From positions 51,173 to 115,172 of the IMG/VR virus record IMGVR_UViG_3300042904_000308: a stretch of DNA of 64,000 nt. One strand, 5' to 3'. The translations under genes were made by a program, and so were the position numbers. This DNA comes from a virus. Positions 11,383-39,586 of the stretch are shown one piece after another. Positions within the stretch are counted from its first letter, which is position 1; the number at the start of each line of letters is the position of its first letter. The notes below the pieces were generated by a model. It was given only the letters and a program-made list of their open reading frames with translations, was not told the DNA's origin and ran no database searches.

Positions 11383-11514
11383 ACTTTCCGCAGGCAATCC
11401 TGAAAATTGGTCCGATCTGCTGGTGTGCGTTTTGTTAAAGTCCGTCGGTGGGCCTCCCTGCTTGGGTCAGATCGCGTCAGCGGGAGGGGCAATCTGCTCA
11501 CGGCGCGTGACCAG

Positions 11515-11549
11515 AAAAAGAAAAACGCCCCGACGTCGTTGTCGAGGCG
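11515..11549 (-). terminator. intrinsic terminator
   Basis: CGCCTCGAC/GTCGGGGCG hairpin followed by a T-rich tract on the minus strand. Confidence 0.6.
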
Positions 11550-18674: not shown

Positions 18675-18699
18675 GTCTCTCCTCATATAGGAACTAAGG

Positions 18700-18900
18700 C
18701 TCTCCCTTCTGGCGTCCTGGCCGCGTATCACGCTCGTCAGCGTGGCGGCTGGGGGCACCCCTGACCCTGCGGGTGCGGTCTGCCTTGCCGCACCTTTCGC
18801 CTGCAGGTTGCCGCTGGGCGCACCATACGATCTGCAGAGGTCCGCTCTTCTCGAACCCGTCACAGCACTCCGTGCCTGATCAGGACGCCAGAAGGGAGAG
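18700..18900 (-). ncRNA. putative structured ncRNA closed by a perfect 20-bp stem
   Basis: CTCTCCCTTCTGGCGTCCTG (18700-18719) and CAGGACGCCAGAAGGGAGAG (18881-18900) enclose internal hairpins. It lies downstream of a promoter and a boxA-like motif. Confidence 0.65.
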
Positions 18901-18924
18901 TGTTGGCCCCGTGGTTGGGGCCAG

Positions 18925-18943
18925 TATTCACTTGTCAAAGTTC
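18925..18943 (-). promoter_or_regulatory. boxA-like antitermination motif
   Basis: GAACTTTGACAAGTGAATA just after the promoter, similar to motifs at 36667-36685 and 36871-36888. Confidence 0.5.
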
Positions 18944-18966
18944 AGAATGAAGCTGCGTCTCTCTTC

Positions 18967-18996
18967 ACTATACGCGAAGACGCAACTAGCTGTCAA
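18967..18996 (-). promoter_or_regulatory. sigma70-type early promoter
   Basis: TTGACA-N18-TATAGT. Confidence 0.8.
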
Positions 18997-19000
18997 GGAA

Positions 19001-19159
19001 CTAACGCGAGGCCTGATATTCAAGCTCGTTTTCGTAGTATGAGCGAACGAGTGCCTGGAGCCTGAGAATCTCTCGCTCGTGGTTGTCATTGTCGGAGTCG
19101 TACATTTCCTGCACGGCCTCCCTGCATGCTTCAGCTATAAGTCCGTCAGAGTCTTGCAT
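19001..19159 (-). CDS. 52-aa hypothetical protein (not in ORF track)
   Basis: MQDSDGLIAEACREAVQEM...YQASR*, with a GGAGG RBS. Confidence 0.55.
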   Translation of the reverse strand: MQDSDGLIAEACREAVQEMYDSDNDNHEREILRLQALVRSYYENELEYQASR

Positions 19160-20252
19160 GGTCCTCCCTCATTTTTACGTCGTTCCGTTCGGTCAATTCA
19201 GCGAACAGCCGCTCGACGTCCTGCCCGTACAGTGTAATGAAGATCGGGGCTCCTCCACTCCTCCGTCCTATCGTCAGGGTGCCATCCTCGTCGATGTCCC
19301 AGCGAGGCCCAGCGTCGAGGGGATGCTCGTCGAGCTTCGCCAGCACGCGGTCCTGCCTCGCAAACTGCCGCCGAATTCGCGCCTCCTCTCGCGGGTCGGT
19401 GACGCCTCGTCGCCTGATGAAGTCATCAGCGCTGCTCATGAGCAGCCTCCCTCGATACGATGTACCGCTCAAGCCTGCGTAGCTCGGTGCCGAAGTCGTG
19501 CATGAATGCCTCCTGCCCGACCGCCTCACGATGCTCGTACAGGCTGCTGGTCAGCGAGGAGAGCACAAGGTTCCACATCGTCACGAACTGCTCCCGAGCT
19601 ACGAGAACGTGGGTTTCCTGAATCTCGTCGATCAGCCATTCGGCCTCCATCCAGGCGCTCGATCCGAGACATGCGCCATCTATCCGTGCTTGCACCCGCT
19701 CGATCATTGCACGTCGTTCGTCAGCCATTACGCTTCCTCCAGTCGTACGCCGCGTTCTCCTCAGCGGCCTCGATTTCCTCCGCCGTCAGCGGCAGCACCG
19801 AAGCCTTGGCGACCTGCAGCGCGTCCCACCGTTCGCCATCATCGGCAAAGTTCAGCGGGTTCGGCGGACAGCGTAGATCGACCATCGTGTCGTCGCTGTC
19901 GTTCTCATCAAGCTCCCCACCGAAGAAAGTCACGAGCCGCCGAGCCAGAGCGATGTTGTCGGCGCAGGACTTCATACTGAAGCCTGGTCCTACCCACTCA
20001 GACGCCCCTAGCTGCCAGTGGAAGTAGAACATCCGCTGGTACCCGTTCAGCGGAGACTCGAAAAAGACCGTCAGCATATCCCCGTCACTGTTTGGCACGA
20101 TCTTCACGACGTCACATTCCGCATGCACCGAGGGTATGTGTGGCCTGACCTCCTTCTCGTTGCCGAGGCAGAAGGCCGTCACGTCGAAAATATCTCGCGC
20201 CTTCGCGCTGGAAGGGAAAATGACCTTCAGATTGACTCCCATATTGTCCCTC

Positions 20253-20555
20253 CTAGTAGTCCGACGGAAGCAGGATCGTGAACACGTCGTCCTCGATCAC
20301 CCACACGTCCTGCCCGTTCATCTGCGTGCTGAACTGGTAGTCGTCGGGACTGGCGCTCCGCTTCCAGACGACGAACTCGTTCCAAATCTCGATCAGTGCC
20401 GCCTGGCTGAACTCCTCCCACACCGCTCGGGTAGCGAGGATCGGTCGACCGCCGCTCAGCTGCTCCCAGCGGTGCCGAGCGAACTCGGCCAGCACGCCGT
20501 CCTCGACGCCCTGCTCCCAGGTGTAGACCGAAATGACTGCTGCGTTCTCGAACAT
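20253..20555 (-). CDS. DUF6573-like protein
   Basis: ISVYTWEQGVEDGVL N-terminus and TILLPSDY C-terminus. Confidence 0.55.
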   Translation of the reverse strand: MFENAAVISVYTWEQGVEDGVLAEFARHRWEQLSGGRPILATRAVWEEFSQAALIEIWNEFVVWKRSASPDDYQFSTQMNGQDVWVIEDDVFTILLPSDY

Positions 20556-21663
20556 TTAGCTCCCTCCTCCGAAACGAATGATCCTGCCCCCACCCTGAGC
20601 CTCCAGCACGACCTCTCTCCAGTCGGGGGGAAGCAGCCCCTGCATCGCCGCTCGATTCGCGGCCTCGTGAAGATATGGGTTCGGGTCATCCATCGCCGCA
20701 AAGAAGATGCCCGACGAATCGTCGCCACCCTCCTCCGAGTGCTGGGCGATGACCGTTGGCCCCCCGAAGAGGGCCGTGAGTGGTGCGCCTGTCTGAGGGC
20801 AGAAGTAGAGGTCGGCGTTGTGGCCGTCGATCCCGAACGAGCCGAGCCATTGGCAGTTCGGGCACCCCATGTCTCCGTAGATCGGCTGTCCGTTCGTCTC
20901 CACTACTCCTCTCCCTTCTTCAAGCGTCGAATACGCAGCGTCGAGCTACCCCAGTGTGTCAGGCTCATCTTGTACCAGCCTCCTCCGATACTCCGAACCT
21001 CGATGAAGCGTTGACGATTACGTGGGTAGTCCTCGACCTCGACGGCGTACTGCCGACCAGCATCCTTCGCGTTCGAGGCCATGCAGGGCCAGCCCTCGAC
21101 CTCGTAGCGGACCTTCGGCCCAGGCTGACTCGGCTTTCGTCGAACAATCTTGGTGCCGTAGAAGATGTCGTTCAGTCTGTCTTCAAGCAATTGCAGTCTC
21201 ATTAGTTACCTCCTGTTCTGACGACGCAGTCGTACAGACTTCCAAAGAACCGCTCCGCCTGAATGCGTGCCCTCCACTTCTTGCCGCTGTACTCGGACTC
21301 CTCGAATGCCCTCGTCTGGTAGTAGTAGCCGTTGTCATCCCTGAACGTTCCGACGAAGCCCAGCTTCTGGTCCTTGTCGTTCCACAAGGGAAGCTCGTAG
21401 AGAAACCCGCGCTCACTCAGAACGTCGAACATGACTGCCTCTGCTTCTCGACCTCGCGGCGATTGCGAACGTTTCGTTGAATGGCCTCAGCGTGGGCCTG
21501 CTGGCGTTGCACCGCTTCCTCCAACCGCTGGGCCTCATGAAGTCCGCACGAATCCCGTACCCCTATAATAATGCCCTCAGCCAAGCCCCAAGAATAGGCG
21601 TCGTCAGCCTGACGCAACCTGCCGACTCTCACAGCTAAGGCGATAATCGTGTCGTCGTTGAGG

Positions 21664-21965
21664 CTATCTCGCCGCATTGTCGTCCTCCCCCAGCTCATTG
21701 AGCAGAGCCGCCATATGCTTGCAGCGACCGTGGAACGTGAAGCCTCGGCAGTCGCACCCGCTGGGCCACACGTTATGCACGATCCCAGGCTGCGACACCG
21801 ACGTCGCGAAGAACTCCTGCTGGCTGAAGCTCTTGAAGATACGCACCCCCTCCTCCCTCGCCCGTCCAAGCAGGCGCTTGAAATCGCCGTACGACATGTC
21901 CATTCCGACGGGTTCATGCACCCGAATTTCGCCGCTCTTGGTCACGTACTGCACTACTGGAAGCA
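21664..21965 (-). CDS. SWIM zinc-finger protein
   Basis: GCDCRGFTFHGRCKH. Start position is approximate. Confidence 0.65.
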
Positions 21966-24707
21966 TTACCCCTCCTATCGAACCGCTGCCCATACCACGG
22001 ACGCGGCACTGAACGCCCACACGAACACCCAACCATACTCCGCGATCAGGTTCATGTCACTGCCTGCCTCCTCACTAATCCTCGGTGAAGTGTCGTTATG
22101 TCTCCCTATTACGACAGCACTACCCGCCGTTCTGTGCCTTTGTTCGATCTTCGATGAGTAGGCCATCGTGATAGATCGCCGCCGACTGATATGCCCCACT
22201 CACCCACAGGATGCAGAGTGCCGCTGCTGTCATACGTACCCGCGTACTTAGCCGTATCGTGGGGTAAGGAAACATCGTATCGGCGCGATCCTCCCACCTG
22301 TCGTCTGAGAACTCCTCGACCGTTCGTTCCCCGTCCTCGGTGACTCTCACTACTTTCCACATTAGCGGAACCTCCCTTCCTGTATCAGGTGACTCACCAC
22401 CTGATTCTCGACCTCCCGCTGCACCCGTTCGAGCAGGTACCCCACCGACTCATTGACCTCCCTCAGTGAAGTCTCTGGCGACACGCCTCGTGGACCGTTC
22501 TGGAACTCGAAGTCCTCCAGTGCCAGCACGACCAGCCGCTCGATCAGTTCCTCCGTTAGCTCTCCCATACGCCTGCTCCACTGATCCCGAGCCGCGTAGA
22601 CGTCGAGCCGTGCCTCCTGCTGTGTACTCATGCCTCTCTCCTATCTGGTGTACAGATCGTACTCATGTTGCCAGTCGGCAATCTCTTCCTCGGTCCACAA
22701 CGCAGGATTCGAGCCAGTGCCGACACACATGGTGCAGTTCTGGATGTAGGTGCTGCCGTCGGGTCGCGTGACCAGTCTCCATCCCTCTCCGTTGCAGACG
22801 GGGCACTCCTGGGGCACAGGCTCGGGCACAGGCTCCTCGTGCATCTTCTCGACGCACTTGTATGACAGCTTCCGCAGTGCGTCGATCATATCAGGTGTGA
22901 ACATCGAACGTGCCCCTCTCTCCACTAATACGCTGCCATCGCTCGGCAGTCCTCGATGAACTGCTCCCGCTTGTCCTCGGGAAACAGCTGGCCGAAGAAC
23001 CAGTAGCGGGACTCCCACCCCTGCTCCTCGTTGATGCCGATGAGTTCGTTGGTGAGCCGAGCCATCGCGTGCAGGTGTGTGATGCTCAGGTTGATGTTGT
23101 TGTCGGCAATCGCCTGCTGGTAGCTCTGCAATGCCTCGCACGCCTCGCCGTGTACCGTTGCGTAGTCTCGCACGCTAGTCCTCCTCTCCTGCCCACGCCT
23201 GGGCCGACAGTCGATCAATCTCCGCGTTGTAGACCTCTCCCATCACGTCCCATGCGAACGATGTCAGCGCGATAATCGTGACCACATACTCGCCACGCTT
23301 GGGGAATAGAATCATCGCCTGCTTGTAGACGATGCAGTTTGAGCCTTGAAACTCAGGCGACTCAAACGGGAAAAAGGGCTCTTGATTGTATGACCTGCAC
23401 CGCTTGTTGACTGCCTCCATGAATCGCTCGTACGCCTGCGAACCGCCTGTAATCTGCGCCCGTAACGTGTGGAACGAATACCAACCGTGTGAATGGTTCA
23501 TGTTTTCCTCCTCTATCTGAGCCTCTAAGCCAACATTGCGGTTTCTTCGTCAAGAATCTCTGATGTCCCGTCTACAAGAAACGGTCGAGGAAGATCGTCG
23601 CAAGCCGTAACCTCGTAGACGCATCCAGACAGCTGCTTCGTGATACGCACCCATCCTTCTGTCAAGGTACACCACACCTCCTGACCGACCTGAAAATCGC
23701 ACATGCTTCCTCCTCTACTGACAGTAGCAGTACGTCGGCGTGCTGGGATATGCGCTGGCAATCTCCCCGCCTGCTATGACCTCGTCGCGGTACGCTGTCG
23801 CTTCGTCCCTGGACCCCCATCCAAGGCTCACCCACTGCTCGTTGCGCCACACCATGACGCACCATGCGCGGTCACAGCTTGGTACATTCCTCAACATTGG
23901 TTCCTCCTCTACGATACCCTCTACTCTAAGGGCACGATGCAGGGTGCCTTGACACCCTGACTCGTAACCTCAGCTGTTTGCTAGCCGCCAATTTCATATG
24001 CGATGCGGTTCAGTGGTTCTCCGTTGGACCGCAGTTCAACCACGGCAAGATTCTCCTGGGTCTGTCGCCCGAGCTTGTCGATGACCTCCTTGAGGTCCAT
24101 CCCGTAGGCCTCTGCGGTGACGTCGCCCGTCGTCTGGTCGATGAGCTTGCCGCAGTACCCCGCGTAAAATTTCGTCAGGTCGATGTAATGCGTCTGTTCC
24201 ATGCTTTCCTCCTAGCTAAACGGTGGACCGTCCCACGGCTCCTGCATACCCGCCTCTACTCTACAGACCTCGCACCAGCCAAGGGGATCAGCTGAGTGGC
24301 GCAGGGCCAGGGAGAGAGTGTCATGCGCCACGATGAACCCGTGATCCTCGCACACCGTCTGCCAGCGGCCCCCAGCCGTGTCAAGCATCGCCTCCTCGCC
24401 ATCGTAGACCGCCACGATGCGGCCCGTCTGCCGCGCTCGTGCCCACTTCCTCAGCCCCGCATGGTCGGGCCAGTTTCTCATCGCCAGAACCTCCCTCAGA
24501 GCGTTGACTTGTCTTGGTACCGCCCGAGCCACGCTCTCGCATCTGCCAGACTTCGATGAGCGTTTTCCAAGCGTCGGGCGTCTCTAGCAGAAGCATCGAA
24601 CGATGGAAGACTGTCGCGTTCCGCCTGTGCCGCCCTCTTTATCTCGGCACTGATGCGATCTATCTCTTCTTGCAGCCGAGAAATGTCCTTGCGAGATAAC
24701 GCTCGAC

Positions 24708-24905
24708 TCATCGCCAGAACCCCCCGTCGCTGTAGACGTTGATGAGACGGTCGCCCTCGTACACCTGCGCCTGCCCCCCGTCCTGATCGACCCACGCTTG
24801 CGCCTGGGCGTAGGCATCGAGCAGGGTCGAATACTCACGCACCAGCCCCCTCAGCGTTATCCATTGTCCACGCTCGTTGAACCCGAAATGCTTGACCTCG
24901 AACAT
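24708..24905 (-). CDS. hypothetical protein, paralog of 33414-33608
   Basis: Shares EVKH.GF..G.W.TLR..VREY.TL.DAYA.A..WVD..GGQAQVYEG.RL.NVY..G.FWR with the second copy. Confidence 0.75.
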   Translation of the reverse strand: MFEVKHFGFNERGQWITLRGLVREYSTLLDAYAQAQAWVDQDGGQAQVYEGDRLINVYSDGGFWR

Positions 24906-26016
24906 TGTTCCTCCTCCTATGCTTGTGGGTACGCCTTTGCGACGTCCCTACCCTTATGGGTCAGCAGCACCTTGAGATTGCTGAGGCTCAGGCTTTCCCG
25001 CTCGTACCGCGCCCTGGCCTGGGCCTCATCGTCGTACTGCGCAAAGAACCATGACGGTCGATCCGACCAGACCCCCGAGGGCGCGAGATAACTGACCGAC
25101 CACTCTGTCACCCTAATCTTCATAGCTTCTCCCCCAGCACGCCGTTGCCGTGGAACGTTATCGTCCTGTAGTGACCACTCGCCACAAGGTGCCTGTTGCG
25201 CTTTCCCGCTGCCTGCTTGACTGCCTGGAACGCCACGAGAACCTCCAGCCTCGTGACGGTTCGCTCGACCTCGCTCCGCCGATTCTCGTTGTGTGCCCAG
25301 CACGCCATCCTGTGAACATGGGAAGCGGCATCGACCTCCGCCTGCAACCGCTCCCCCTCCTCGTCCAGATGCTCCCACACGGCGTCAGTCTTGTTCGTCA
25401 TCCTCCCACTCCTCGTCGTAGCCGTTGATACGGTCGGCTCGAAGCTCCATTTCCTGCGCCAGCTTCGCCAGAACGTGTTCCCGCAGCTGCCTCGTCAGCC
25501 GCTTGACCCCGTAGTGATTGCAGATCGCCTCCCTCGGCGCGTAGACGATGCCTGCCAGCCCCGCGTCCCACGGACAGGTGAACTGGCCCCTCGGCGTGGT
25601 CGTGGCACAGAGGGCCACCCCGCCATGCACGTAGGCGTAGACAGGGAGCGCCACCCCGCGCCCAGGCTCGTTCAGATAGGCGACCGTGCCGCTGATCGTG
25701 ACCTGTGCCCGTGCAGGCAGCGTGTCCACGAACCGCTCCAGGTCTGCATCGACCGAAAAATATCTGCTGGTCGTCTTGCCGTAGAACGTTCCGATCATCG
25801 TTGTGCCTCCAATACTGTTCGTGCCTCGTCCCATTGAATCCACCCGTCGCGTAAGTCCTCGGTTAGCTCGGCAATCAACCCCCTTTGCGTACCCTGCGGT
25901 GCCGTTACCTGCTGCCTCGTGACCTTCCCTGCAATGCGCAGCGTGCGCAGGATCACGAATCTCCCCTGCGCGTTCGTGGTGGCCTTGTATGTGACCCTCA
26001 TCGTGACTTCCTCTCT

Positions 26017-26337
26017 CTACCCTAACACTCGCTCGATCAACGTTCGTGCCCTCATCGACGGCTCCCGCGTCAAGAAGCCCTTGCCGCGTGCTGCCTCGTA
26101 AGGAACGGGAGTCTCAAACTGAGCAGCTGTCACATCCAGCACCTGACCGTCGAGCGTCCGCAGAAACCAGTGTGACGCCCCCTCGTGCCTCACGTGCATC
26201 GGTGTATCGACCCTGCCCCGTAGATGGTACAGAGCTTCACTAGCCACGTAGCAGTGCCCCGCCAGCGGATGGCTTCGACCCCTCCATTCAGGCCGCAGCA
26301 GATCAGGCGTGAGACGTGCAACAACCGCGTCAACCAT
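26017..26337 (-). CDS. papain/transglutaminase-like fold protein
   Basis: GHCY...HWFL...LDVT gives a putative Cys-His-Asp triad. Confidence 0.5.
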   Translation of the reverse strand: MVDAVVARLTPDLLRPEWRGRSHPLAGHCYVASEALYHLRGRVDTPMHVRHEGASHWFLRTLDGQVLDVTAAQFETPVPYEAARGKGFLTREPSMRARTLIERVLG

Positions 26338-26858
26338 CGTGACTACCTCTCTCTACCCTAACACAGATTCCAGCGTCTCGACCGCTTCGAGCATGTTCGC
26401 CCGAGCTTCCTCGATCTGCGCCAGCAGCCGCTTCGATACCTGCCGCCTCCCCCTTGCCTGGGCCTCTACCGACTTGAATCTCGATGCCGCATCAGCCGCC
26501 TTACGTCGAGCCGCCTCGATGCGCTCCGCCTTCTCGACAGCCTCCCGCTTCCGCCGTCGCTCGACGCGATCCCTGATCCGCTGTTGATCGAAGTCCGTGA
26601 AGAAACCCTCCAGCTGCACCGTGAACCTCCTCTACCCTTCCATTCCCGCTCGGCTTTCAGCTTCCAGTTCCAGCCTGTGAGCTTCGTCATAGCCCACCCA
26701 AATCTGCACGGTGCGTCGAATGCCGCGCTCCATGAACAGACCCCGATCTTCGACAACCCTGCTGTCCTCCTTCATGTCCCGAAACGCCCCAGCCCACAGC
26801 TTCAACAGTAGCTCCCGCTGCTCGTTATCCACGCCTGAACCTCCTCGCTAAACCAATC

Positions 26859-26978
26859 GGTGGAGCTGGGGGGAATCGAACCCCCGTCCAGACCACGAGC
26901 CACCCTTATAGAGTGGATGGGCTTGTTTCTGTGCGCGTTCTCGCCCGTCCCGTACCCTGTCGATACCATGACAGCCCC
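26859..26978 (-). ncRNA. ssrA-like: miniature tmRNA (tRNA-like domain intact, mRNA-like domain reduced)
   Basis: 5' GGGGCUGUCAUGGUAUCGAC and 3' GACGGGGGUUCGAUUCCCCCCAGCUCCACC. Acceptor stem GGGGCUG/CAGCUCC has G3.U70 and A73. It also has a T-arm and a P2-like stem, and is only 120 nt long. Confidence 0.85.
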
Positions 26979-27753
26979 AGGTGAGGCCCAGGGTCGGGCC
27001 TCGATGCTTACTTGACTTCCGTCGTGACACTGCGAACGGTGAGTCCCTTGAACCAGTCCTTGAGGTCATCGTCGTGCTGGAGAAAACTGGCAAAATCTCT
27101 CAGCAGTTCGTCGAAGGGATACGGCTCATCCTCGGCCATACCCCACGCCCCCACAGCCTTGCGTTTGTTGTAGGTGACGTTCAGCGTGATCGTTGCGCGT
27201 GCCATCGTGTTACCCTCCTACTCGCAGATGCAGAACGACTTCATGTTCCCACAGAACAGGCACTCGTCGGGATGAGACTCGGCCAGAATGATGCACGGCA
27301 CGTCGTAGAAATACTGCGCCAGCACCTTGACCTCGTCCAGCCCGTCGTACGCGGCCTGAGCCTCCTCCTTCGTCTCGAACGTCGTTACCTTCTCGTCAGT
27401 GAGAACCGCGTACCACATTACGTCCATCGTGTGACCTCCTCGTGTGAATCGCCAGTCCGTTTCTCCCTACCCTTGCAGGGGTACCTTCGTGAGCGAGTAC
27501 CGCTCCAAGAGAGAGTCGCGATATTCGTCAATTTCTTCGTCTGTCAGGTCGTCGTAGACCTCGACCTCCTCAGTGACCCCCTCTCCAATCTCAGCGTTCA
27601 TTGCCGCCACAGCTGCCGCCTCGTTCGCGTACACCCCCACGACATGCACAATGTTCTCGTCCTGGTTCTCGTACATCAGCACCACTACATCCATCGTGCG
27701 ACCTCCCGCCTGCTTGTGCAGGCACGTTCTACCCAACGCCTGAGCCTCTCGCT

Positions 27754-27806
27754 AGGCATCAGGCAGGGCCAGCCGCTGTCATTCAGCCGCCCTGCTAGGT
27801 GCCTAC
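27754..27806 (-). repeat. intergenic hairpin element, copy 1
   Basis: Plus strand AGGCATCAG-GCAGGGC..GCCCTGC-TAGGTGCCTAC. Confidence 0.85.
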
Positions 27807-28455
27807 CTCTTACCCTCTACCCTTATCGGTTGTATGGGGCATCCATGAAGATGACCTGATGGACGCGATTGCAGGCCTGGCACCTGTAATGCCCCTGCCA
27901 GTCAGAATCTTCTGGCGGTCCATCGGGCATGTCGGGATCATCCCCGTACCAGTCGAAGGTGTGTGGGTCCGCCGCGTAAAACCCGCTACCCTCGGCAGTG
28001 TTCCCGCACTGGCAGCGGTAGCCATTCATCTGCTGCGCGTAGATTCTCTCCATTGTACCGTGTCTCCTCTCGGTGAAATGCTGCCCCTACCCTTAGGGCA
28101 GTTCTTCCCAGTTCTCTTGTTCGATCATGCTCAGTCCCGACGCCGCATCCTCAGCCAGCACGTCGGCTGCGATCTTTCGGAACAGCATGTCGGCCTGGGC
28201 ACCTTCCCGCGTCACTCGCGCACGCACGTTGTGAACGGCATAGCTGACGTGCAGCTGTTCCGCCACACCCTCCGCGCAGGTTGCCTCTAGCGATTCACGC
28301 ACCCCAACGCAGGCGTCACGGAGCGACTCGCCTCCCTTCACGACCCCGACGATCAAACGATCCAGTTCCCACAGGTATCCCGTCACTGCTACCTGATCCA
28401 TGACTACCTCCTCGAAACGCTGGCGGGAGCCACGATTGACCCCCGCCCCTGAGCC

Positions 28456-29700: not shown

Positions 29701-30177
29701 TTCCGCCCTCGCTTTCCCTGCTCGTGCTTCACCGTGTCCATATCGTCACGGTTGTACCGCTCGATCAGCAGCCAGCAGTCCTCGCTGCCCTCTACCCTAT
29801 AGAGCCGCTGAACCTCGGTCGCCTTCGCCAGCGTGATCCCCTCGCCGCCCCGCGTCAGCCGCTCGACGCAGCCCGAGTCGCAATAGCTCTGCGAGTCGCC
29901 CATGATGAATACCGCCATCGTTCCCTCCTCTAGCCTTGCAGCCTGAGACTTGCTGCCGCCGACCGAACGTTCTCCCACGCCTGCCACCCGAAGAAAAGCT
30001 CGATATGCTCCTCCAGGTGCATTAGCTCGACCGCACAGGCCCGAGCCATGCCCTCGTATCCAGCCGCCTCGTGTTCAACCCTGCGATCTTCCAGCAGCGC
30101 GACCTCGTGCAGTGCCTTGTCGAACTGTTCCCTTGTCATGCCCTTTGTCCTCCGTTCCTGAGTCAGATACCCGAGTC

Positions 30178-30223
30178 AGGCATCAGCGAGAGGCCCAGGC
30201 CTGAGCCTCTCGTAGGTGCCTAC
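30178..30223 (-). repeat. intergenic hairpin element, copy 2
   Basis: AGGCATCAG-CGAGAGG..CCTCTCG-TAGGTGCCTAC; contains the TAG stop of ORF 30220-30333. Confidence 0.9.
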
Positions 30224-31797
30224 CCCAACAGAAACCACACGACCGCCGCTATGATCCCCAGTAACCAGAACGGCACGTTCAGCCGCAGCCACAGGTGCTT
30301 GCCCAGCAGCCACACGTTGACGTGAATCGTCATGCTCCTCCCTCCCGCTGGTACGCCTCGATCTTCGCCTTCGCCGCGTGGTAGATCGCCTCTAGCACGT
30401 CGAACGGAACCTCGATGGACTCGTTCGGCCAGTAGTCATCGTCAGCCGATGAGTAGTATTCAACCGACACGTTGAACGCCCCGTCACTGCTCATACGCAG
30501 GGACGCCTCAACACCCGCGACCTCCTCCGTCTCTGGTCGCTCGTACAGCCCCCGCTCCGTGGTCGTGTTGAACTCGACTGCCTCTTGCAGCTTCGCCTGG
30601 TCGATCATGCCTACCCTCTACCCTTCCACTGATTCAGCTGCCAGACCTCTCGGTGCGCCACGCTGTAGAACTTCCAGAACTTGCCGCTGTCCCTCGTCGC
30701 TGCCTTCGTCAGGTGCAGCGAACACATGTAGACCGTGCCATCGTCCGCCGAGGCAATCGAGCCTGCCGCGAACCCTGTGTTGGCCTGCCGCCTGCACTGG
30801 CGGATGTCGTCGCGCCTGCTTCGCCGCCTCACCGCGCACTCACACTGCACCATCTTGACCTCCGATCAGACCCCGCTCGACTGCCGCCCTGTGCAGCCCC
30901 GCGAACGCCTCAAAATGTGCCGTACACCGATCAGTCACGTACTTGGCGGCATACTCCGAGCGCCACCGCAGCAGCTGGGCCTCAGTCGCAAGGTGCCCCA
31001 GCCCGAGCCATACCAGCATCCCCGCTGTCGCCTGTGTCTTACCCACGACGTACCTCCTCGACCTCGCTAACCGTCCAACCGCACTCCTCCAACACAGCCT
31101 TCGTCGCCTCGGCATCGCTGCGATACATGAATCCGTACACATACGGTCCCTGCGGATTGTCTGGATGTGACGCCTCGATGGTCCAATTGTTGAAGCTCGC
31201 TACCCATGCCGTCTGCATCGTTTCCTCCTGTCATGCCCCTAACTTACCACGTCGCCGCCAGTGTCGCCTCCTGACAACCACAGACCGCCGTCTGCTCGGT
31301 GAAGTAGTCCACGAGTGCCTGCCCCGCGACCTCGTCGGCCAGCATGACCTGTCGGCAGTCCTCGTACACCGCGCCCTCGATGCTCCCGAAGAGCGCGAAC
31401 CGCGCCAGCGCATTGTTCCGCGCATCGCTGTGCAGGTGCGCCAGTTCCCTCATCCGCCGCTCTCGCTCGTTCATCCCTGACTCTCCCTCGCTCGCCGCCG
31501 CGCCTCGTCGCCCAGGCGGACCCGCTCATAATCGACTTTTATCATTGCCGCTTTCGCCGCGTCATACCGCTGCACCCAGTCCCGCACTGCCTCCTCGCTG
31601 ACGCCCTCCCGCAGCAGGTTGATGCCCTTCTCTGCCGTGGCGTAGTCCATGCAGCAGGCCACGACCGAGCCGTGAAACCTGACCTGTGGGTGTGTCTTGC
31701 CCGTCAGGATGCACGGCTTCATGCTGACGGGCCAGTTACATTCGATGTGGTACTCGCGTTCCATGTTGACCTCCTCTACCCTATATCGTGCCTGTGC

Positions 31798-31843
31798 AGG
31801 CATCAGCGAGAGGCCCAGCCCTGAGCCTCTCGTAGGTGCCTAC
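31798..31843 (-). repeat. intergenic hairpin element, copy 3
   Basis: Nearly identical to copy 2; contains the TAG stop of 31840-32052. Confidence 0.9.
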
Positions 31844-32907
31844 TCGACCTCCACCGTGTACGTCTGCCGCGTCTCCGTCTCGCCGTCTGCCGTCATCCTC
31901 ACCACGTATTGCCGCGCCCCACTGCCGCGAGGAAAGACCCGCATCAGGGTGAGTGCCGCCGTCTGCCCGATTGTCTCGGCCATCTGCTCGTCCTCGACCC
32001 TGTCCAGCATGCGCTCTGGCGCGTCTGGCTGCTCCAATGTGATCGTGAACATGCCTACCCAACCTCCACTTCGTCTGGCCCCAGCTGCACCAGATCGAGC
32101 GTGACCCGCTCGCCCACGAAGTAGGGATCAATGTCTGCATTGCCCGTGTACTGCACCCCGTCGAACACGCGGCAATACTTCGCTAACGCCTCCCACGCGG
32201 CCTCCTCGCTCGAATGCAGGCTGACCAGATGGCCGTCCTGCGCGAACACTGGAAAGATTCTCATTGCCTGCCCTTTCGCTACGCTGGCGGGTGCCAGATC
32301 GACACCCACCCCAACCCTGAGCCTCTACCCGTACACCTTCCCCGTTATGTGGACCTGGGCGACGTACTCTGCCGCCTCTGACCGCTTGTCGAACGTCAGG
32401 ATGGCGGGGATGCCGTGGTCATCGTGAATGGGCATCCAGCCCCACGGTGACTTCAACACTCGGCCCCGCGAGTGCCCATCATCGCCGCCAATCGGCTGAC
32501 CGTCGATCAGCACATCGTAGAGCGGCGGAGCGCCCCTGTGCGCCCATTTTTTCATGGTGACTTTCATGCTCTCGGCCCTCCTACCGTCATGGTGCCCCGT
32601 TGACACCCCTCTACCCTTAGAGGTTCCAGCCCGTGATAATCGCCCTACTCGCATTGAGTTCGGCCCCGAGCCTGTCACCGTTCAACGCGCACTGCTCGGC
32701 ATCGAGCGCCATCCCTGCCGACTGTCCAGCCCTCTCGGGGTTGATGCAGTCCTTCGCCGCACGGATGGCCTGTATCACGTCGTGCCACATCCCCGCCTGC
32801 GCCTCAGCTGCCGCCATTTCTTTGTTCGCTGTCGCCAGCGCATCGTTGAGCATCCTGTTCAGCTGCATCGTGTCCTCCCTGTCGTGTGCCTAATCCGCTG
32901 CCTGTGC

Positions 32908-32952
32908 AGGCATCAGTCAGCGGCCCTGGTCGAGCCGCTGATAGGTGCCTAC
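32908..32952 (-). repeat. intergenic hairpin element, copy 4
   Basis: Inner stem TCAGCGGC/GCCGCTGA; contains the TAG stop of 32949-33095. Confidence 0.9.
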
Positions 32953-33413
32953 CCGTCAGCCTCCTCCGCGTCACAGACCTCGGCGCAGCCCTGCGTACAC
33001 TGCTCCATGTCGGGCGAAACCTGCTCACAGACTGCCCCGTCGGGCCACGAACTGTGCGTGTCCCAGCACGCATCCAAGCATTGATTGCACGTCATACCGC
33101 TACCTCCTCAGGTGCCTGCCCTGCGGCCATCCTCACGCATACCAGCCGTTGAACTGCTCGCGAATCTCTGCGGCTGTGTGTCTGCTGGGGTCGCCTATCG
33201 CCTGCCCTCGCCCTTGCAGGCACAGCACGCATACGGCAGGCTCCTCGTCCAGATTGACAGCCGTACTATCCCAATCGAACCAACGTTCGCACTCAGGGCA
33301 TTGGACGACGCCGCGTTCAATGTCTAGTTCGAAGGTGCCGTCATCCCGCCGATGCGTGGTGTTGAACCAGACGTAATTCTTTGCCATTGCCTCTACCTCC
33401 TCAGGTGCCTGCC

Positions 33414-33608
33414 CTATCGCCAAAACTTACCGTTCTCGTAGACGTTGACGAGCCTACTGCCCTCGTAGACCTGTGCCTGCCCTCCCTCGCTATCCACCCA
33501 ATACCGAGCGAATGCGTAGGCGTCCGTCAGTGTCGCGTACTCCCTGACGTTCGCCCGTAGCGTGGTCCACTTACCGTTAGAGAATCCGTAGTGCTTCACT
33601 TCGTACAT
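33414..33608 (-). CDS. hypothetical protein, paralog of 24708-24905
   Basis: Clear amino-acid identity along the whole length. Confidence 0.75.
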   Translation of the reverse strand: MYEVKHYGFSNGKWTTLRANVREYATLTDAYAFARYWVDSEGGQAQVYEGSRLVNVYENGKFWR

Positions 33609-33647
33609 GACTCACTCCTTCGATGTGCCTGCCTTGCGGCCATCCGC

Positions 33648-33689
33648 AGGCATCAGCCAGCACCCCGCAAGGTGCTGGTAGGTGCCTAC
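33648..33689 (-). repeat. intergenic hairpin element, copy 5
   Basis: Inner stem CCAGCACC/GGTGCTGG. Confidence 0.9.
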
Positions 33690-33952
33690 CCGTTGACCTC
33701 CTCTACCCTTACCCCCCAATCAGGCGATACCGATAGTCCGCCCGATACTCGCTAACCTGCTCGACCTGAGCGACTAGCACGCTGTCAGCGTCCCACACGC
33801 CCCGAGCTATCACCCGCTGCCGCGCAGCCTCCGCCCCTTCGATGCTGCTGAATTGTCGCTCCCACGCGGTCCCGAGGATGTCGCCGCTCTCCAGCCTGTA
33901 AACGATTGCGTACATGGTTCCTCCTCCAAGTGCCTACCCTGCGGCCATCCGC

Positions 33953-33998
33953 AGGCATCAGTCAGCGGCCCGAACCCGAGCCGCTGATAGGTGCCTAC
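33953..33998 (-). repeat. intergenic hairpin element, copy 6
   Basis: Inner stem TCAGCGGC/GCCGCTGA; contains the TAG stop of 33995-34164. Confidence 0.9.
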
Positions 33999-34206
33999 CC
34001 TACCTCGCAGTGGCGGAGCGCATCGGGGATATCGTTGAACTCCTCGACGGCCCGAACGATTGGCGCGGGTCCACTGTGTACGGCAATCGTGCAGTCAGCA
34101 CCCGCCCCGTACGCTGTGAAGTCAGCACCGACCAACGCCAGCAGCAGTACCAACAGTTCGAACATGGTTTCACGCCTCCTATGTGCCTAGCTTGCAGCCA
34201 ACCTGC

Positions 34207-34258
34207 AAGCACCAGTCAGAGGCCCAACCCAACGCCTGAGCCTCTGATAGGTGCCTAC
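34207..34258 (-). repeat. intergenic hairpin element, copy 7
   Basis: AAGCACCAG-TCAGAGGC..GCCTCTGA-TAGGTGCCTAC. Confidence 0.85.
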
Positions 34259-34830
34259 GTTATGGGCACCGCTCACCCGTAGCACTGCACTCCTCGGGAT
34301 CATGCCCCGCAGCAGTGCAGACCTCGAAACACGCGCCAGACTCCAACCCGACACAATCGCCGCACCACTGATAGCAGTAGCCGTCGAATGGGTCGCAGTA
34401 GGTTGGACCGCCACACACCGAACACGTACCCATCTTTTACCCCTCCTACCCTATGCGCACTTCCCGAGCGTGCCGAACGTCCCATATCGCTAGTTGGTTG
34501 TGTGCCTGAGCCAGGGCCACCGCGTCAGATTTGCGCCGAACATTGACAACGGGATCAATGTAGACCGTCCCGTCATCGTTCCACGTGCCCCAGGTGCCGC
34601 CATCGCTCACCACGCTATCGAGCAGCCCCGCCAGCGTGGATGTATCGTCAATTCGAGCCGTCAGGCTATTGTCAGACAGCCCGACCATGTAACCGCTCGC
34701 ATAATCGAGCAGCCCGCTACCGTCGAAGGTTGCGCCATTGTTGGCGCGGGTCGCCTTGATAATCTCGGATGTCGAGAACATCGTGACTCACTCCCACTTG
34801 CCGAACGTGCCTACCCTGCGGCCAACCCGC

Positions 34831-34876
34831 AGGCACCAGACGGGGCACGCGATACCATGCCCCGTTAGGTGCCTAC
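34831..34876 (-). repeat. intergenic hairpin element, copy 8
   Basis: AGGCACCAG-ACGGGGCA..TGCCCCGT-TAGGTGCCTAC. Confidence 0.9.
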
Positions 34877-35003
34877 TGTACTTCCTGCCTCTACCCTAAT
34901 AGCACGCCACCGATAGAGCCATTGCTGGCGATGGTGTCGAGAATGTCGCGGATATCGTCTGTCATCGTGCCTACCCCTACGCTAGTACCGTGATACCTCA
35001 GTC

Positions 35004-35049
35004 AGGCATCAGACGGGGCACGCGATACCATGCCCCGTTAGGTGCCTAC
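35004..35049 (-). repeat. intergenic hairpin element, copy 9
   Basis: Same inner stem-loop as copies 8 and 10. Confidence 0.9.
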
Positions 35050-35426
35050 TTTGCCGCCACTTTGTCAGAATCGACCAGGCGGATAGTGCCTACTTTGCCG
35101 CCAGTTAGTCAGTTATCCAGCTGGGATTAGCCAGCGCTATCCGTGAGCGTGCCCTACCGTCTGCAACGGTCGTAACCCGCAAGGTGCCATCGTTCCAATT
35201 TGAGACTATCAGCCGCCTACCGTCTGGTAGACCGAGGCTAGCGGTAGCGTCTGGTATCTGTGCAAACGTGGTGGCATTCTCCCACGCGGTGCGGAGCGTT
35301 CTGTACTCGTGAGCGGTGCCGAAACCGTCGCCGTTGTCGTATCTAACTGTGAACATTGCGCCTACTCCTCGACTATGTGCCTACCTTGCGGCCAACCCGC
35401 AAAGTGCCTGCCTATCGGCCATCGCC

Positions 35427-35472
35427 AGACATCAGACGGGGCACGCGATACCATGCCCCGTTAGGTGTCTAC
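35427..35472 (-). repeat. intergenic hairpin element, copy 10
   Basis: AGACATCAG...TAGGTGTCTAC, with a compensatory change in the outer stem. Confidence 0.9.
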
Positions 35473-35474
35473 CC

Positions 35475-36278
35475 CTAGGCCTGAGCCACTACCCCGAAGA
35501 TAGGTAGATGGGATACATGGAACCCGAAACCCGCAAGGTTCCACAGTGTCCATTGGACCGCGAATACTGGCAGTTCGGGAAGTTCAACGCTCGCCCAAAC
35601 CTGCCACGCCTCACTGAGAATCTGGTACGCGGCGTCACTGGTGAATGTCGGGTTTACCGTGGCATCCTCACCCGCCGCGTACAGAGATAGGCGCATCATC
35701 CAAACGTCGAGCGTGAATACTGGCGCGTAGCAGTCCCACAATGCGACCGCCATCGACGAGGTTTTGGCCCCCATGCCGCGTAGGGTAATCAAGCGGTCAA
35801 ACGTCATATCGTCAGCGGTAATTGACTGCAATAGGGGCAGTGCTGCAAATACCGCTTGAGCCTTATTTCGCCAGTACATGAAGCGGCCAGACTCGCCAGA
35901 CTTGAGGGTAACGCGCATGACATCTTCCACGTCACCGACCGTTTGCAGGTTGTCGATGATCGGCGCAATGTTCGCCGCTAGTTCAACGTTGAAATTGAAC
36001 GCCAGTTGCGGCGATAGGATGGCGAACAGCACGCAATGGCGAGCGTATAGCGTGGGATTGTCGAGCCGCATTGATTGCATACGGGTGAGTTCGGCCAGCA
36101 CTGGCGCGGCATTTTCACGCACCAACGCGGATAGATTCACGCTGGAATCAGTCAGACTATCCGCAAGGTTTTGCGCGTGGGTTTTGTTGATTGCCAGCGT
36201 GGGCAGTTCGGATTTGCGAGCGTACGAAACCGTATGCAGATTGCCTACGGAGTGCGGGTTATTGATTGTGCCGAGCAT
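35475..36278 (-). CDS. HhH-superfamily DNA glycosylase/AP lyase-like protein (Ogg-like)
   Basis: AILSPQ, RF.YWRNKA, HhH motif LITLRGMGAKTSSM with Lys, and LDVWMMR carrying the catalytic Asp position. Confidence 0.65.
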   Translation of the reverse strand: MLGTINNPHSVGNLHTVSYARKSELPTLAINKTHAQNLADSLTDSSVNLSALVRENAAPVLAELTRMQSMRLDNPTLYARHCVLFAILSPQLAFNFNVELAANIAPIIDNLQTVGDVEDVMRVTLKSGESGRFMYWRNKAQAVFAALPLLQSITADDMTFDRLITLRGMGAKTSSMAVALWDCYAPVFTLDVWMMRLSLYAAGEDATVNPTFTSDAAYQILSEAWQVWASVELPELPVFAVQWTLWNLAGFGFHVSHLPIFGVVAQA

Positions 36279-36303
36279 TGACTATCTCCCATTCATTGCC
36301 TAG

Positions 36304-36668
36304 TGTCGCCAGCCGCGAAACACTGCCAAACATCCCGTAGGATGCTAGGCAGTGCATAGGCTAGTAGAGTGATTCACTACGTACTAGCCTCACACTGTAT
36401 CCAACCTGCTATTACTAGCAGTCCCTTACCCTAGTAGGTGCTACGCCACTAGGGTAACTTGCGGTTAGCTATTCGCCATCGTGCCTACCGCGATTCACGA
36501 AACTATGGAATATCGCCCCGACTGTTACCAGTGATGTATTGCCGTTTGCCGCTAACCCGCTCGCCTCATTAGGGTAGTGAGTGACTCACTAGGCGAAACC
36601 TACTACCGTGAGGGATAGAGCCAAACTAGCGATACTCGCAGTACCAGTGCTGGTAACGTCTGGCGATA
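36304..36668 (-). ncRNA. large multi-branched structured RNA (early leader domain 2)
   Basis: Closing stem TGTCGCCAG/CTGGCGATA encloses at least six hairpins. There is no ORF. Confidence 0.65.
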
Positions 36669-36692
36669 TGAACTTGTCAAGGTGCTAAGAGA

Positions 36693-36872
36693 ATCTAACC
36701 GAAACCCGAAGGGTCTACGTTCGTACGGAACCGTTCCACGGTAAGCAATGTTTGGACGTTCGCTAGGTTCCTCGCATCGGTTTCGAGCCTAGGCTAGAAA
36801 CCTGACGGGTTAGCGTCCCGAGCGTCAAGGCTTACCCTACTGTGTGAGTGCTGCCGTACGACCGCGTTAGAT
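36693..36872 (-). ncRNA. rod-like structured RNA (early leader domain 1)
   Basis: Nested inverted repeats ATCTAAC/GTTAGAT, CGTACGG/CCGTACG and GGTAAGC/GCTTACC, lying between two boxA-like motifs. Confidence 0.6.
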
Positions 36873-36933
36873 GCAATTTGTAAAGTGCGCGCCCCCTCGT
36901 TGCCGAGTGGCGTTTGTCATTGCTGACACTGGT

Positions 36934-36962
36934 AATCTAGCAAACGCTGATCAGGATGTCAA
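36934..36962 (-). promoter_or_regulatory. sigma70-type major early promoter
   Basis: TTGACA-N17-TAGATT, heading the minus-strand arm. Confidence 0.8.
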
Positions 36963-38479
36963 TACCCTAATTCCAGATGCCCCTACGCGCATATAATGAA
37001 AGCGGCCAGGCCGTTTGCAATGTTGAATATGCAGATAAACATTGGGCAAACGGGGCAATTTGAGGCAATTTTTGAGAATCGTAAAATTGCCTCATATTTG
37101 ACCGCTCATCCCTCACATTATGGCAACCTATCGCCCTGGTCGGCATGGTTCTACGACCTCGTTAGCGGTAGCTATTCGAGCCTGCAATGTGTCGTGAATA
37201 GCAGTCTGGCGTACGCCGCTAGCACGCCGCTAGCAGTGCCCCTACAGTGCCGCTAGTGATGCCCCTAGCCTATCGTGGGAGATGCCCCTATCGTGCCACT
37301 GGTACGCCAGACGGGGCAGGCACGATTCATGAACGGCAATTCACGATAGCCTGGTTTCGTTACTAGGCAGTAAGCAATGGCGGCGGGTTGGTAACTGGCG
37401 AGTAAGGAAGTCGAGCGGGTGAATGTGAACGAGGGTATAGAATGGACGGGTTGGGAGTGAACGAGGGTAAAGTATGGGATTACTAACAGTTCGTCACATA
37501 CGCGGATTATTACCAGTGGGTTAGATATGTGAGCTGCGTTTGTGAATGTGCGGTAAGTGGGTATGTGAACGAGCATAAAGCACATATGTGAACGAACGAT
37601 AAGCGACCAGGCGAGTGCTGACAGTCAACCTAATCACTATTAGGCGGGTTGACACTCCAGACGGGGCTAGAATAGTGCGTACGTACGCGGGTTTAGGGGT
37701 GGCGTGGCCCCTCAAATCCGCTCCATTCGCGCGTTATGTTGACCGCTGCAAGTCACCAAAATAACTGCCCACTATTTTCGCAAATGCGCCTCGTTCAGCT
37801 CCCCCGCCCCGCTCGATTTTCACCGTTTTCGAAGCCGATCTGAGCCGATTTTCGAAATTCCAGGCGGTATTTTCGCCCTGGAAGAAATTCCTGAAAAATT
37901 CGCGCAAAATTTGGCCCTTTCTGGCCCTCTTTTCATTAAACGCCACCAGAGCGTCACTGTTGAGGCCAAAAATGGGCCTGAGAGCCGCGAAATGTCACAC
38001 GAATGACACAGATATCGCGTAGGACGGCCTTTTCGGCCCTGAGGGCAAGAATGAGGCCATACCCCGAGCCTGGGCCTCACCTGCCGTCGGAAATCATGAG
38101 CGCTCTCTCTCGTGACCGAGCGCACCCTGGTCGACGGCTTACTCCTCTCTCTGTGTGTGTACTCTCCCCTATGGAATGGGAGGGGCTCAGGCCAGGGGAT
38201 CGATCCGAGCTCGGACGCCTGCGCAGGCAGCTGGTACGGATTGTGCTATAACGCTGATTGCTAGGAGAGCTGGCTGCAACAGCTGTCCTGGTACAGCCAG
38301 AGGCGAGAAGCGTCACCCGAGCTCAGGGTGGCGCTTCTTTAGCTCGACCAGAAAACGTACGTTGACCCTGCTAACGTACGCTTTATTAGAACGAAGGTTC
38401 TCTAGTACTATACCTATATTAGATATATAGGGCCGATTTCCTGAAACCCCAGCTCCCGCCTAGGCATTTGGGAAATGGG

Positions 38480-38543
38480 GTGGTCAATGACTGACCACTT
38501 ACTGGTCAATGACTGACCACCTGTAAGAAAAAGCTGACAGGTG
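38480..38543. repeat. tandem palindromic 18-bp repeats (operator or origin iterons)
   Basis: TGGTCAATGACTGACCAC at 38481 and 38503 (22-bp period), next to an AT-rich tract at 38401-38430. Confidence 0.6.
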
Positions 38544-38580
38544 ATCGGGCCGTTGACATAGGGTATTGGGGTTGTTTTAG

Positions 38581-39003
38581 ATGCAGGGTGCGTGTATTAT
38601 GAACAGTGAGCTTACCGAATCAGACCCAATTTCCGATTCGCTTCAAAAAAAGGTAAGTTTGGAGGATGCTGTGACGATATTAATAGTGGAGGTAGGTGGA
38701 CGACCGTTCAAGGTCTTCGGAAGCGAGAAGGTCTGCCCTACGTGTGGCGAGACGAAGCCGATTGATGACTTCACGGTGAACGCCCGAGCCACGGACGGCC
38801 ACCACTGGGAGTGCCGCGTCTGCAAGAGCAGGCGTGACAGCAAGAGTTACGAGCGCCACCGACAGAAGCGAATCGAGATGTCGAAGCGCTACAGAGAGGA
38901 GCATCCCGACAAGCACAGAAAGTACAGCCGCGACTACAAACGTCGGAAGCGGCTGGAGGAGCGCGAGAAGCGGATACGCGAGCTGGGCCTCAAGCCCTGG
39001 TAG
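38581..39003 (+). CDS. Zn-finger basic protein (HNH/EndoVII-associated N-terminal type); true start may be GTG 38686
   Basis: KVCPTCGETKPIDDF...ECRVC. Confidence 0.6.
   Translation: MQGACIMNSELTESDPISDSLQKKVSLEDAVTILIVEVGGRPFKVFGSEKVCPTCGETKPIDDFTVNARATDGHHWECRVCKSRRDSKSYERHRQKRIEMSKRYREEHPDKHRKYSRDYKRRKRLEEREKRIRELGLKPW
38655..38688 (+). promoter_or_regulatory. phage-specific promoter-like motif, copy 3, heading the plus-strand arm
   Basis: AAGTTT-N9-TGTGACGATATTAATAGTG. Confidence 0.7.
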
Positions 39004-39134
39004 GTGCCTTCGGGTGCCTGCATTCAGGAGTGGTGAGGAGCGGAGCCATCATCCGTTTGCCAGCCAGCCGCGATCAAACTGACTATTGTCACCGACCGCT
39101 CGCCACTCCTGATTTCAGGTACCCGCCAAGTACC
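39003..39134 (+). ncRNA. putative structured RNA with long closing stem
   Basis: CGGGTGCCTG/CAGGTACCCG and TCAGGAGTGGTGAG/CTCGCCACTCCTGA; intergenic. Confidence 0.5.
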
Positions 39135-39586
39135 GTTGTTTCTGCGGTTGCGGACGGGGGTGTGAGCCTCCAGAGGAACGCAGCCCCATCATAGGTCATG
39201 ATGTGTATGTTCCTGTGTCTCGCCCCTGTTCGTAATTGCACCTTGAGGAGCTTTCCATGTACGCCGACTGCCAGCACTGCGGCACCCAGCACGACCGTCA
39301 CGGACGAGCGCACCACTGCATTTCGTGCGGTGCCCCCTTGCGTTTCGAGGAGCAGCAGTCGGTGATCTATAACGTCACCTTTAATGAATCCGCCCCGCCG
39401 ACCACCTCGACCGAGGATGATAAGGCCGCTCGGGAATACCAGAACGCTCGGGTGATCGCCTGGGGCATTCTGCTGATCCTGCTCGCCTACGCTACGTTTG
39501 TCTACTAGGGGAGGCCCAGGCCAAGGGCGCTCACTGAGCGTGGCCTGTGTATTAGTTGTTTCTGAGCTAGTTTCGCGGAGATATAC

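Follow-up and report, generated by a model that had tools for sequence, protein, structure and literature searches.

A putative leftward early operon with a TLD-only tmRNA, GTAG hairpins and structured leaders in a phage contig

Introduction

Strong promoters, stably folded leaders, repeated intergenic hairpins and a transfer-messenger RNA (tmRNA) gene reduced to its tRNA-like domain (TLD) lie close together in one region of a phage genome. Do they form a single RNA-based system, or does an ordinary operon carry several RNA elements? The question is raised by positions 18.7–39.1 kb of a 64-kb stretch of DNA (the window), which comprises bases 51173–115172, the final part, of a 115,172-base virus record in IMG/VR. 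An earlier note on this DNA had combined the elements into an integrated takeover system, in which long antiterminated transcripts are processed at the hairpins into mRNAs and into decoy or mimic RNAs aimed at host translation rescue and transcription. As judged from the sequence, the region is probably a divergent control region followed by an ordinary long leftward early operon that carries several independent RNA elements. We favour, at about the same strength, the view that these elements are mutually independent and that each has a known analogue. The present evidence for this explanation consists of sequences, folds, covariation, strand bias and positions.

Layout of the leftward operon

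All genes at window positions 1–36278 lie on the minus strand, in the order DnaB-like helicase, deoxynucleoside monophosphate kinase and then approximately 18 kb of small genes, mostly without known relatives. The interval 36.3–38.6 kb is a divergent control region that is poor in open reading frames (ORFs) and lowered in G+C content. The plus-strand genes beyond it include a Xer-like tyrosine recombinase, the large terminase, the portal and the major capsid protein. Three promoters define the layout:

36934–36962, minus strand: early promoter P1, TTGACA-N17-TAGATT with TG upstream of the -10 element (10/12 match)
18967–18996, minus strand: promoter P2, TTGACA-N18-TATAGT (11/12 match)
37649–37676, plus strand: rightward sigma-70-like promoter in the divergent control region (10/12 match)

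P1 and P2 are the best sigma-70-like sites on the gene strand within 18.6–38.6 kb, and both are located in non-coding DNA. The host-type promoters claimed by the earlier note are represented by these two strong sites, but the total number of sigma-70-like promoters is at chance (7 against 6.3 expected), as are the boxA matches that were said to accompany them. Beyond P2, the next strong promoter is found at 13045 and a strong terminator at 11549–11526. Between P1 and P2, terminator-like matches are weak and at chance in number, and none is convincing as an intrinsic terminator.

Because 36962 is the lone strong promoter, the next lies at 18996 and no convincing intrinsic terminator separates them, a single long leftward transcript from P1 is plausible. 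Since the terminator-like matches are weak and at chance, such an 18-kb transcript would need no special antitermination at intrinsic sites. The long transcripts of the earlier note are thereby retained in part, as one plausible transcript, and their antitermination is not. In the scheme we propose, P1 would drive some 18 kb of small co-oriented genes preceded by a structured leader of about 650 nt, and P2, with its own clamped leader, would open the next unit.

SmpB, RNase III and the tyrosine transposase associated with repetitive extragenic palindromic (REP) elements (RAYT; PF01797) were each sought in the whole 115-kb contig and not found. The DxDGD motif occurs in no long ORF of the contig, and its large ORFs have no RNA polymerase match in Pfam. 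Host enzymes would therefore have to act, and the phage, whose genome measures at least 115 kb, appears to rely on the host RNA polymerase.

A mini-tmRNA among the early genes

26858–26978, minus strand: TLD-only mini-tmRNA of 121 nt (Rfam RF00023)
26983–27002, minus strand: 7-bp hairpin GAGGCCC/GGGCCTC, which includes the decamer CCTGRGCCTC and is separated by 4 nt from the mini-tmRNA downstream

The mini-tmRNA that had been noted among the early genes is recovered by RF00023 with 72.5 bits (gathering score 47; E 3e-26). The two ends of the 374-position model align with high posterior probability, and 292 positions in its centre are absent; at this locus, ARAGORN called neither a tmRNA nor a tag. 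Besides A73 and a perfect 7-bp acceptor stem with G3:U70, the RNA has a D-loop analogue that ends in UCGAC, a T-arm of GGGGG/CCCCC and the P2 helix. At its 3' end the gene reads ACCG instead of CCA. An insert of about 40 nt forms two small hairpins; only 69 nt, folded as P2 and both hairpins, separate UCGAC from GGAC. The ring of pseudoknots PK1–PK4 was looked for in the fold and is absent. One 12-codon frame ends with UAA in the loop of the second hairpin, in a sequence that lacks a resume-codon context. Two small genes of the same orientation flank the gene, which fills the 175 nt between them. It is the sole tRNA-like gene of the 115-kb contig, in which ARAGORN detected zero tRNA genes.

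The mycobacteriophage DS6A was listed as "TLD only" by Hudson, Lau & Williams 2014 (PMC4131195), and its copy was read directly at NC_023744 28478–28560; it has no Rfam match at the gathering score and was read by eye. Both RNAs have the G3:U70 acceptor stem, the D-loop analogue ending in UCGAC, a short P2 and the T-arm, and both genes lie in an intergenic spacer with co-oriented neighbours. By contrast, the present copy measures 121 nt, with the 40-nt two-hairpin insert, against about 83 nt in DS6A, and its 3' end is encoded as ACCG. The DS6A copy is found beside lysis and replication genes and the present one in a long early operon, and sequence similarity is limited to the universal TLD core.

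When IMG/VR was scanned by pattern for paired TLD halves at a spacing of 20–110 nt, four further TLD-only contigs came to light (L003, L004, L005 and L088). Their copies score 64–76 bits with Rfam, display the identical central deletion and all keep G3:U70 and A73. Covariation across five phage copies affects acceptor-stem positions 5–7 and T-stem position 2, and the central insert is not conserved among them. The four contigs have no DNA in common with the present genome and lack the hairpin motif described below. In L005, a consensus sigma-70 promoter is followed by a 59-aa ORF, the mini-tmRNA and an intrinsic terminator, a unit that would make early expression a recurrent feature. On its sequence, the mini-tmRNA is real, and is an example of a recurrent, already described TLD-only type.

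Three further observations were made in these genomes. In L005 (10331–12246), an 85-nt cassette with a consensus sigma-70 promoter is present in three copies, the first of which drives the ORF, mini-tmRNA and terminator unit. L088, with a mini-tmRNA of 82 nt, also has a Pistol ribozyme that scores 50.7 bits (locus 5916–6012, minus strand); the two are on the same strand, some 2.2 kb apart. Pseudomonas phage SM1 (L002, NC_041877) has at 1263–1562 (minus strand) a full, apparently permuted tmRNA with the tag ANDTSFDVRLAA by Rfam and ARAGORN; this stretch also holds a tRNA-Arg, and the record annotates no feature there.

Within the proposed scheme, the mini-tmRNA would be co-transcribed with the early genes and freed by the host enzymes that process tRNA ends, namely RNase P at the 5' side, and trimming and CCA addition at the 3' side. 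G3:U70 could then direct its charging with alanine, and SmpB of the host could bind it. A similar TLD molecule strongly inhibits tmRNA, perhaps through titration of SmpB (PMC4131195). Following the hypothesis made for DS6A, the RNA may compete with host tmRNA, with the consequence that phage proteins escape tagging or that rescue is blocked. An RNA aimed at translation rescue, as the earlier note had it, has in this sense a published precedent and a published hypothesis.

Another reading, which we hold possible though on balance unlikely, is that the mini-tmRNA works as a tag-free rescue factor, which adds alanine and frees ribosomes untagged, or as a tRNA-like RNase P punctuation mark of the 18-kb transcript. 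The alanine identity and the RNase P-competent acceptor and T-arm, kept and covarying in the five phage copies, would suit either role, as would the lack of tRNA genes in the contig and the UAA-ended frame in the hairpin loop. Against them stand the missing resume-codon context and pseudoknots, the tag that ARAGORN does not find, the variable insert and the inhibition of tmRNA by a similar TLD molecule (PMC4131195).

Two other ideas were discarded. A remnant attP of an ssrA-integrating phage was rejected, as both TLD halves are present and the tyrosine integrase is located 28 kb away. Identification of the host through the 5' half of the TLD gave two chance matches, neither at a locus with an Rfam match; the one that was read is a protein-coding-looking repeat sequence.

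Ten intergenic hairpins

35427–35470, minus strand: hairpin 1, GT-AGACACCTA...CTGATGTCT, which begins 4 nt past the stop codon of the upstream gene (this and the following by fuzzy search and alignment)
35004–35047, minus strand: hairpin 2
34831–34874, minus strand: hairpin 3, with a fully paired outer stem
34207–34256, minus strand: hairpin 4
33953–33996, minus strand: hairpin 5
33648–33687, minus strand: hairpin 6
32908–32950, minus strand: hairpin 7
31798–31841, minus strand: hairpin 8
30178–30221, minus strand: hairpin 9
27754–27804, minus strand: hairpin 10, with the longest inner stem

A fuzzy search over the whole contig found exactly ten full hairpins, all on the minus strand, sense-oriented and intergenic, between 27754 and 35470. 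The units are 40–51 nt long and consist of GT-AGGCACCUA, a variable stem-loop of 8–10 bp and CUGAUGCCU. Alignment A3, on which covariation was read, contains a helix of 16 pairs in which 98.8% of the cells are paired and both sides change at 10 pairs. These values are matched by 0/500 shuffles, and slid registers drop to 33–42% paired, which bears out the ten conserved hairpins of the earlier note. The helix is made up of 5+1+10 pairs; a C.A mismatch and a 2x2 loop interrupt it. The 5' GTAG is invariant in 10/10 copies, with its AG paired, and the top of the inner stem is a U.G wobble in nine copies and G.U in one, a retention that by itself would favour minus-strand RNA. No U-run follows any of the ten, so they are not classic intrinsic terminators.

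The most likely role of these hairpins, which occupy spacers of the first 9 kb of the operon, would be that of sites for mRNA processing, stabilisation of 3' ends, or both, comparable to the RNase III sites of T7 or to transcribed REP elements. Dunn and Studier are said to have described in 1983 the RNase III processing sites R0.3–R1.3 of the T7 early region. The likeness lies in a series of related, sense-oriented intergenic hairpins with an internal loop, positioned between a stop codon and the following ribosome-binding site (RBS) in an early transcript of the host polymerase. The present stems are shorter (about 16 pairs) and known here from sequence; they also differ in having an invariant GTAG tag and a separate junction motif. 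Putative processing at the hairpins is a reasonable analogy with the T7 sites.

An integron-like cassette array was rejected, because the tyrosine recombinase is Xer-like and reaches 96.8 with the integron model, for which the cut-off is 265. The consensus of attC core sites is of the GTTRRRY type; such a core was not seen in the conserved parts of the hairpins on reading alignment A3, for which no dedicated pattern search was run. Hairpin promoters of the N4 type, served by a phage RNA polymerase, were rejected on the missing DxDGD motif in the long ORFs of the contig and the missing Pfam polymerase match in the large ones.

It is distinctly unlikely, in our estimate, that the ten hairpins are primarily REP-type DNA elements, which a RAYT of the host disseminated as single-stranded DNA or which were copied from the host chromosome, with secondary effects on mRNA. 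The GTAG-tagged REP elements of Di Nocera et al. 2013 have a terminal GTAG, an imperfect palindrome, a structured loop and an extragenic location, and their G.U pairs suggest an RNA role (PMC3733652). All these traits recur here, including the complex inner stem-loop and the G.U pairs; the sites are extragenic, after coding regions and between genes of the same direction, and the direct repeat GGTAGGCAC flanks several units. On the other hand, REPs are mostly inverted dimers (PMC3733652), whereas the present copies are found in a phage, number only ten, are single and in one orientation, and have a partly paired GTAG (its AG), and the contig was found to encode no RAYT. Among 301 Acidobacteriota genomes, none has the pattern in multiple copies. 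Cultured phages lack it, and IMG/VR gave two single, chance-like matches in two near-identical contigs.

A partial eleventh copy was observed at 38985–39019 (minus strand). It retains the 5' half AGGCACCTA and a short stem, lacks the 3' arm and overlaps the end of the plus-strand HNH-like gene.

The junction octamer

33930–35384 (span), minus strand: five stand-alone GTAGGCAC motifs with first bases at 35384, 35093, 34974, 34814 and 33937 (motif scan)

The junction motif of the earlier note, the octamer GTAGGCAC, is equally well founded, with 17 copies on the minus strand and 0 on the plus, where approximately 2 are expected per strand; 14 of the 17 are inside 27.7–35.5 kb. This strand bias in the sequence argues for a strand-specific role. 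A small GCGG/CCGC hairpin precedes three of the five stand-alone copies, and in four the distance to an RBS or start codon downstream is 1–27 nt.

Phage genomes with comparable repeats are on record. T4-type phages reportedly have PeSL (promoter early stem-loop) cassettes that contain an early promoter (Arbiol and colleagues, 2010), and cluster K mycobacteriophages are said to have start-associated and extended start-associated sequences (SAS/ESAS; Pope and colleagues, 2011). Like these, the present elements are conserved, partly inverted repeats among small phage genes, just upstream of start codons; the sequences are unrelated, and the present units lack the early promoter of PeSL.

Alternatively, the octamer could form the core of a (middle) promoter specific to the phage, or of some other site bound by a protein, with the hairpins stabilising the 5' ends of many short transcripts instead of being cut sites in a long one. 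The strict strand specificity and the four copies close to an RBS or start codon agree with this, but nothing is conserved upstream of the octamer and neither a sigma factor nor an RNA polymerase of the phage was identified among the contig proteins, where the polymerase motif test covered DxDGD only and 20% of the genome is missing. We therefore rate a promoter or binding site of this kind as very unlikely.

The decamer CCTGRGCCTC forms a further repeat family, with 36 sites (window 4622–63924) against 0.54 expected, in both orientations and in coding and non-coding DNA. Its inverted pairs make up the loops and stems of several hairpins.

Structured leaders and boxA-like motifs

36279–36927, minus strand: strongly structured leader of about 650 nt downstream of P1, up to the first gene, with no minus-strand ORF of at least 40 aa
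18700–18900, minus strand: leader domain of 201 nt with a perfect 20-bp closing stem (18881–18900 with 18700–18719)
39011–39125, plus strand: long-stem element with 27-nt arms, in the plus-strand spacer 3' of an HNH/endonuclease VII-like gene
36672–36682, minus strand: boxA-like 11-mer CCTTGACAAGT in the P1 leader, a motif match not above chance
36877–36885, minus strand: weaker boxA-like CTTTACAAA in the P1 leader
18930–18940, minus strand: boxA-like 11-mer CTTTGACAAGT in the P2 leader, followed by a GGCCCC/GGGGCC hairpin at 18905–18922

The three long-stem structures of the earlier note are indeed stable folds. The P1 leader (36290–36930, minus strand) has a stability z of -5.4, and the clamped P2 domain (18695–18905, minus strand), which ends 25 nt before the ATG at 18674, folds with -114.7 kcal/mol and a z of -6.1. 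The third (38975–39140) has a z of -4.5 on the plus strand and -3.0 on the minus; as it is placed in a plus-strand spacer, it belongs to the rightward arm and not to the leftward early transcript. Rfam yielded no family at E<=1 for any of the three. The two leaders may be cis-regulatory or stabilising 5' untranslated regions.

Antitermination has well-known signals in boxA-boxB of lambda nut and rrn and in HK022 put. The resemblance consists in a boxA-like 9–11-mer followed by a small hairpin, and in a large structured RNA just past the early promoters. The 11-mer CYTTGACAAGT with its small hairpin is present in both leaders, which share nothing beyond this 11-mer. With up to one mismatch, the 11-mer occurs over the whole contig at a count near expectation, and the boxA core occurs 8 times against 3.9 expected, a number equalled by 6 of 100 shuffles. 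The present case further differs in having no N-like factor, no Rfam match and no terminators to override. No antiterminator of the N, Q or NusG type was identified in the contig by Pfam or PHROG. A 166-aa protein was considered as a Q-like antiterminator and rejected as weak (PHROG E 6e-5, a sub-threshold DnaJ zinc finger and an atlas score of 0.78).

The window contains a single perfect boxA core, CTTTAACAA (11432–11440, minus strand). It is situated in a 470-nt spacer and follows the gene strand's strongest intrinsic terminator (11526–11549, minus strand) at a distance of about 90 nt.

Independent elements or one system

Several points weigh against the explanation by an ordinary operon with independent elements. 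The collections searched yielded no relatives in which covariation of the leader folds could be read, and the region is designated early from its layout alone. The conserved C.A and A.C mismatches in the outer stem of the hairpins, as written on the minus strand, become wobbles on the plus, and the summed energies are similar (-288.7 kcal/mol on the minus strand against -275.8 on the plus), so that the wobbles do not settle the functional strand. With about 16 paired positions, the hairpins are short for a classic RNase III site. Finally, approximately 20% of the genome is off the contig, and phage-encoded factors could be located there.

Two more concerted readings were weighed. In the first, the P1 leader and the clamped P2 domain would be new non-coding RNAs that, with the GTAG hairpins and the TLD-only tmRNA, form a co-ordinated RNA-centred early programme; we find this highly doubtful. 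We place no more trust in the attendant proposal that the hairpins are excision or processing signals of a programme that reshapes host translation quality control. The second, the co-evolved takeover by antiterminated transcripts cut at the hairpins into mRNAs and decoys against ribosome rescue and transcription, is the least credible of all: the elements were called co-oriented and downstream of the two strongest promoters, the leaders share an identical-core 11-mer and hairpin and their folds are unusually stable, but the boxA-like matches are at chance, no antiterminator was identified, there are no terminators to override, Rfam yields only tmRNA at E<=1 and no transcription-directed RNA family, one of the three long-stem RNAs is on the opposite arm, and TLD-only tmRNAs stand alone, without the hairpin family, in five other unrelated phages.

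The last of these findings leans against integration, for which there is no positive evidence beyond co-orientation in one operon. An integrated system is unsupported. Each part has a known analogue, and only the mini-tmRNA is traceable in other genomes, where it is found unaccompanied by the other parts. The statement that no described phage has such elements is wrong for the parts taken singly, and the proposed mimic RNA aimed at transcription finds no counterpart in Rfam at E<=1.

Control region, neighbouring genes and relatives

The control region contains four iteron-like repeats (ATGTGAACGAGGGTA-like) and an 18-nt unit, TGGTCAATGACTGACCAC, in two tandem copies that are jointly palindromic; the repeats are located at 37423–37603 and 38479–38521. 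In sequence, these repeats look like an origin or operator cluster.

The first gene of the operon (35475–36278, minus strand) encodes a 267-aa protein that has no match in Pfam or PHROG. Its predicted structure looks like an HhH-GPD/Ogg-like DNA glycosylase fold (feature score 0.96, TM 0.56–0.64), with no pointer to an RNA-directed function. Further down the operon, an 85-nt stretch of 74% identity is common to two small early genes (24710–24794 and 33416–33500) and suggests paralogous genes within the operon. On the rightward arm (46936–53450, plus strand), two adjoining very large ORFs of 1286 and 884 aa have no informative match in Pfam or PHROG.

The completeness of the contig is estimated at 80%. 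No close relative was found among cultured phages in INPHARED at the DNA or protein level, nor in IMG/VR using a 414-aa early protein and the terminase. A metagenome scan with the 414-aa protein gave only homologues of <=41% identity, and a regular-expression scan of their 80 loci detected no paired tmRNA ends. P0002 and P0003 are homologues of the 414-aa protein with 58% and 49% identity.

Implications

An integrated system is unnecessary to explain the data and should not count as a discovery. If the mini-tmRNA blocks or replaces host trans-translation early in infection, it would enlarge the still small, growing group of phage RNAs directed at ribosome rescue, of which the TLD-only type comprises one published case and the four further found here; the L005 unit suggests immediate-early use. 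The ten GTAG hairpins, for their part, may provide a clean model for REP-like palindromes as processing or stabilising signals of phage mRNA.

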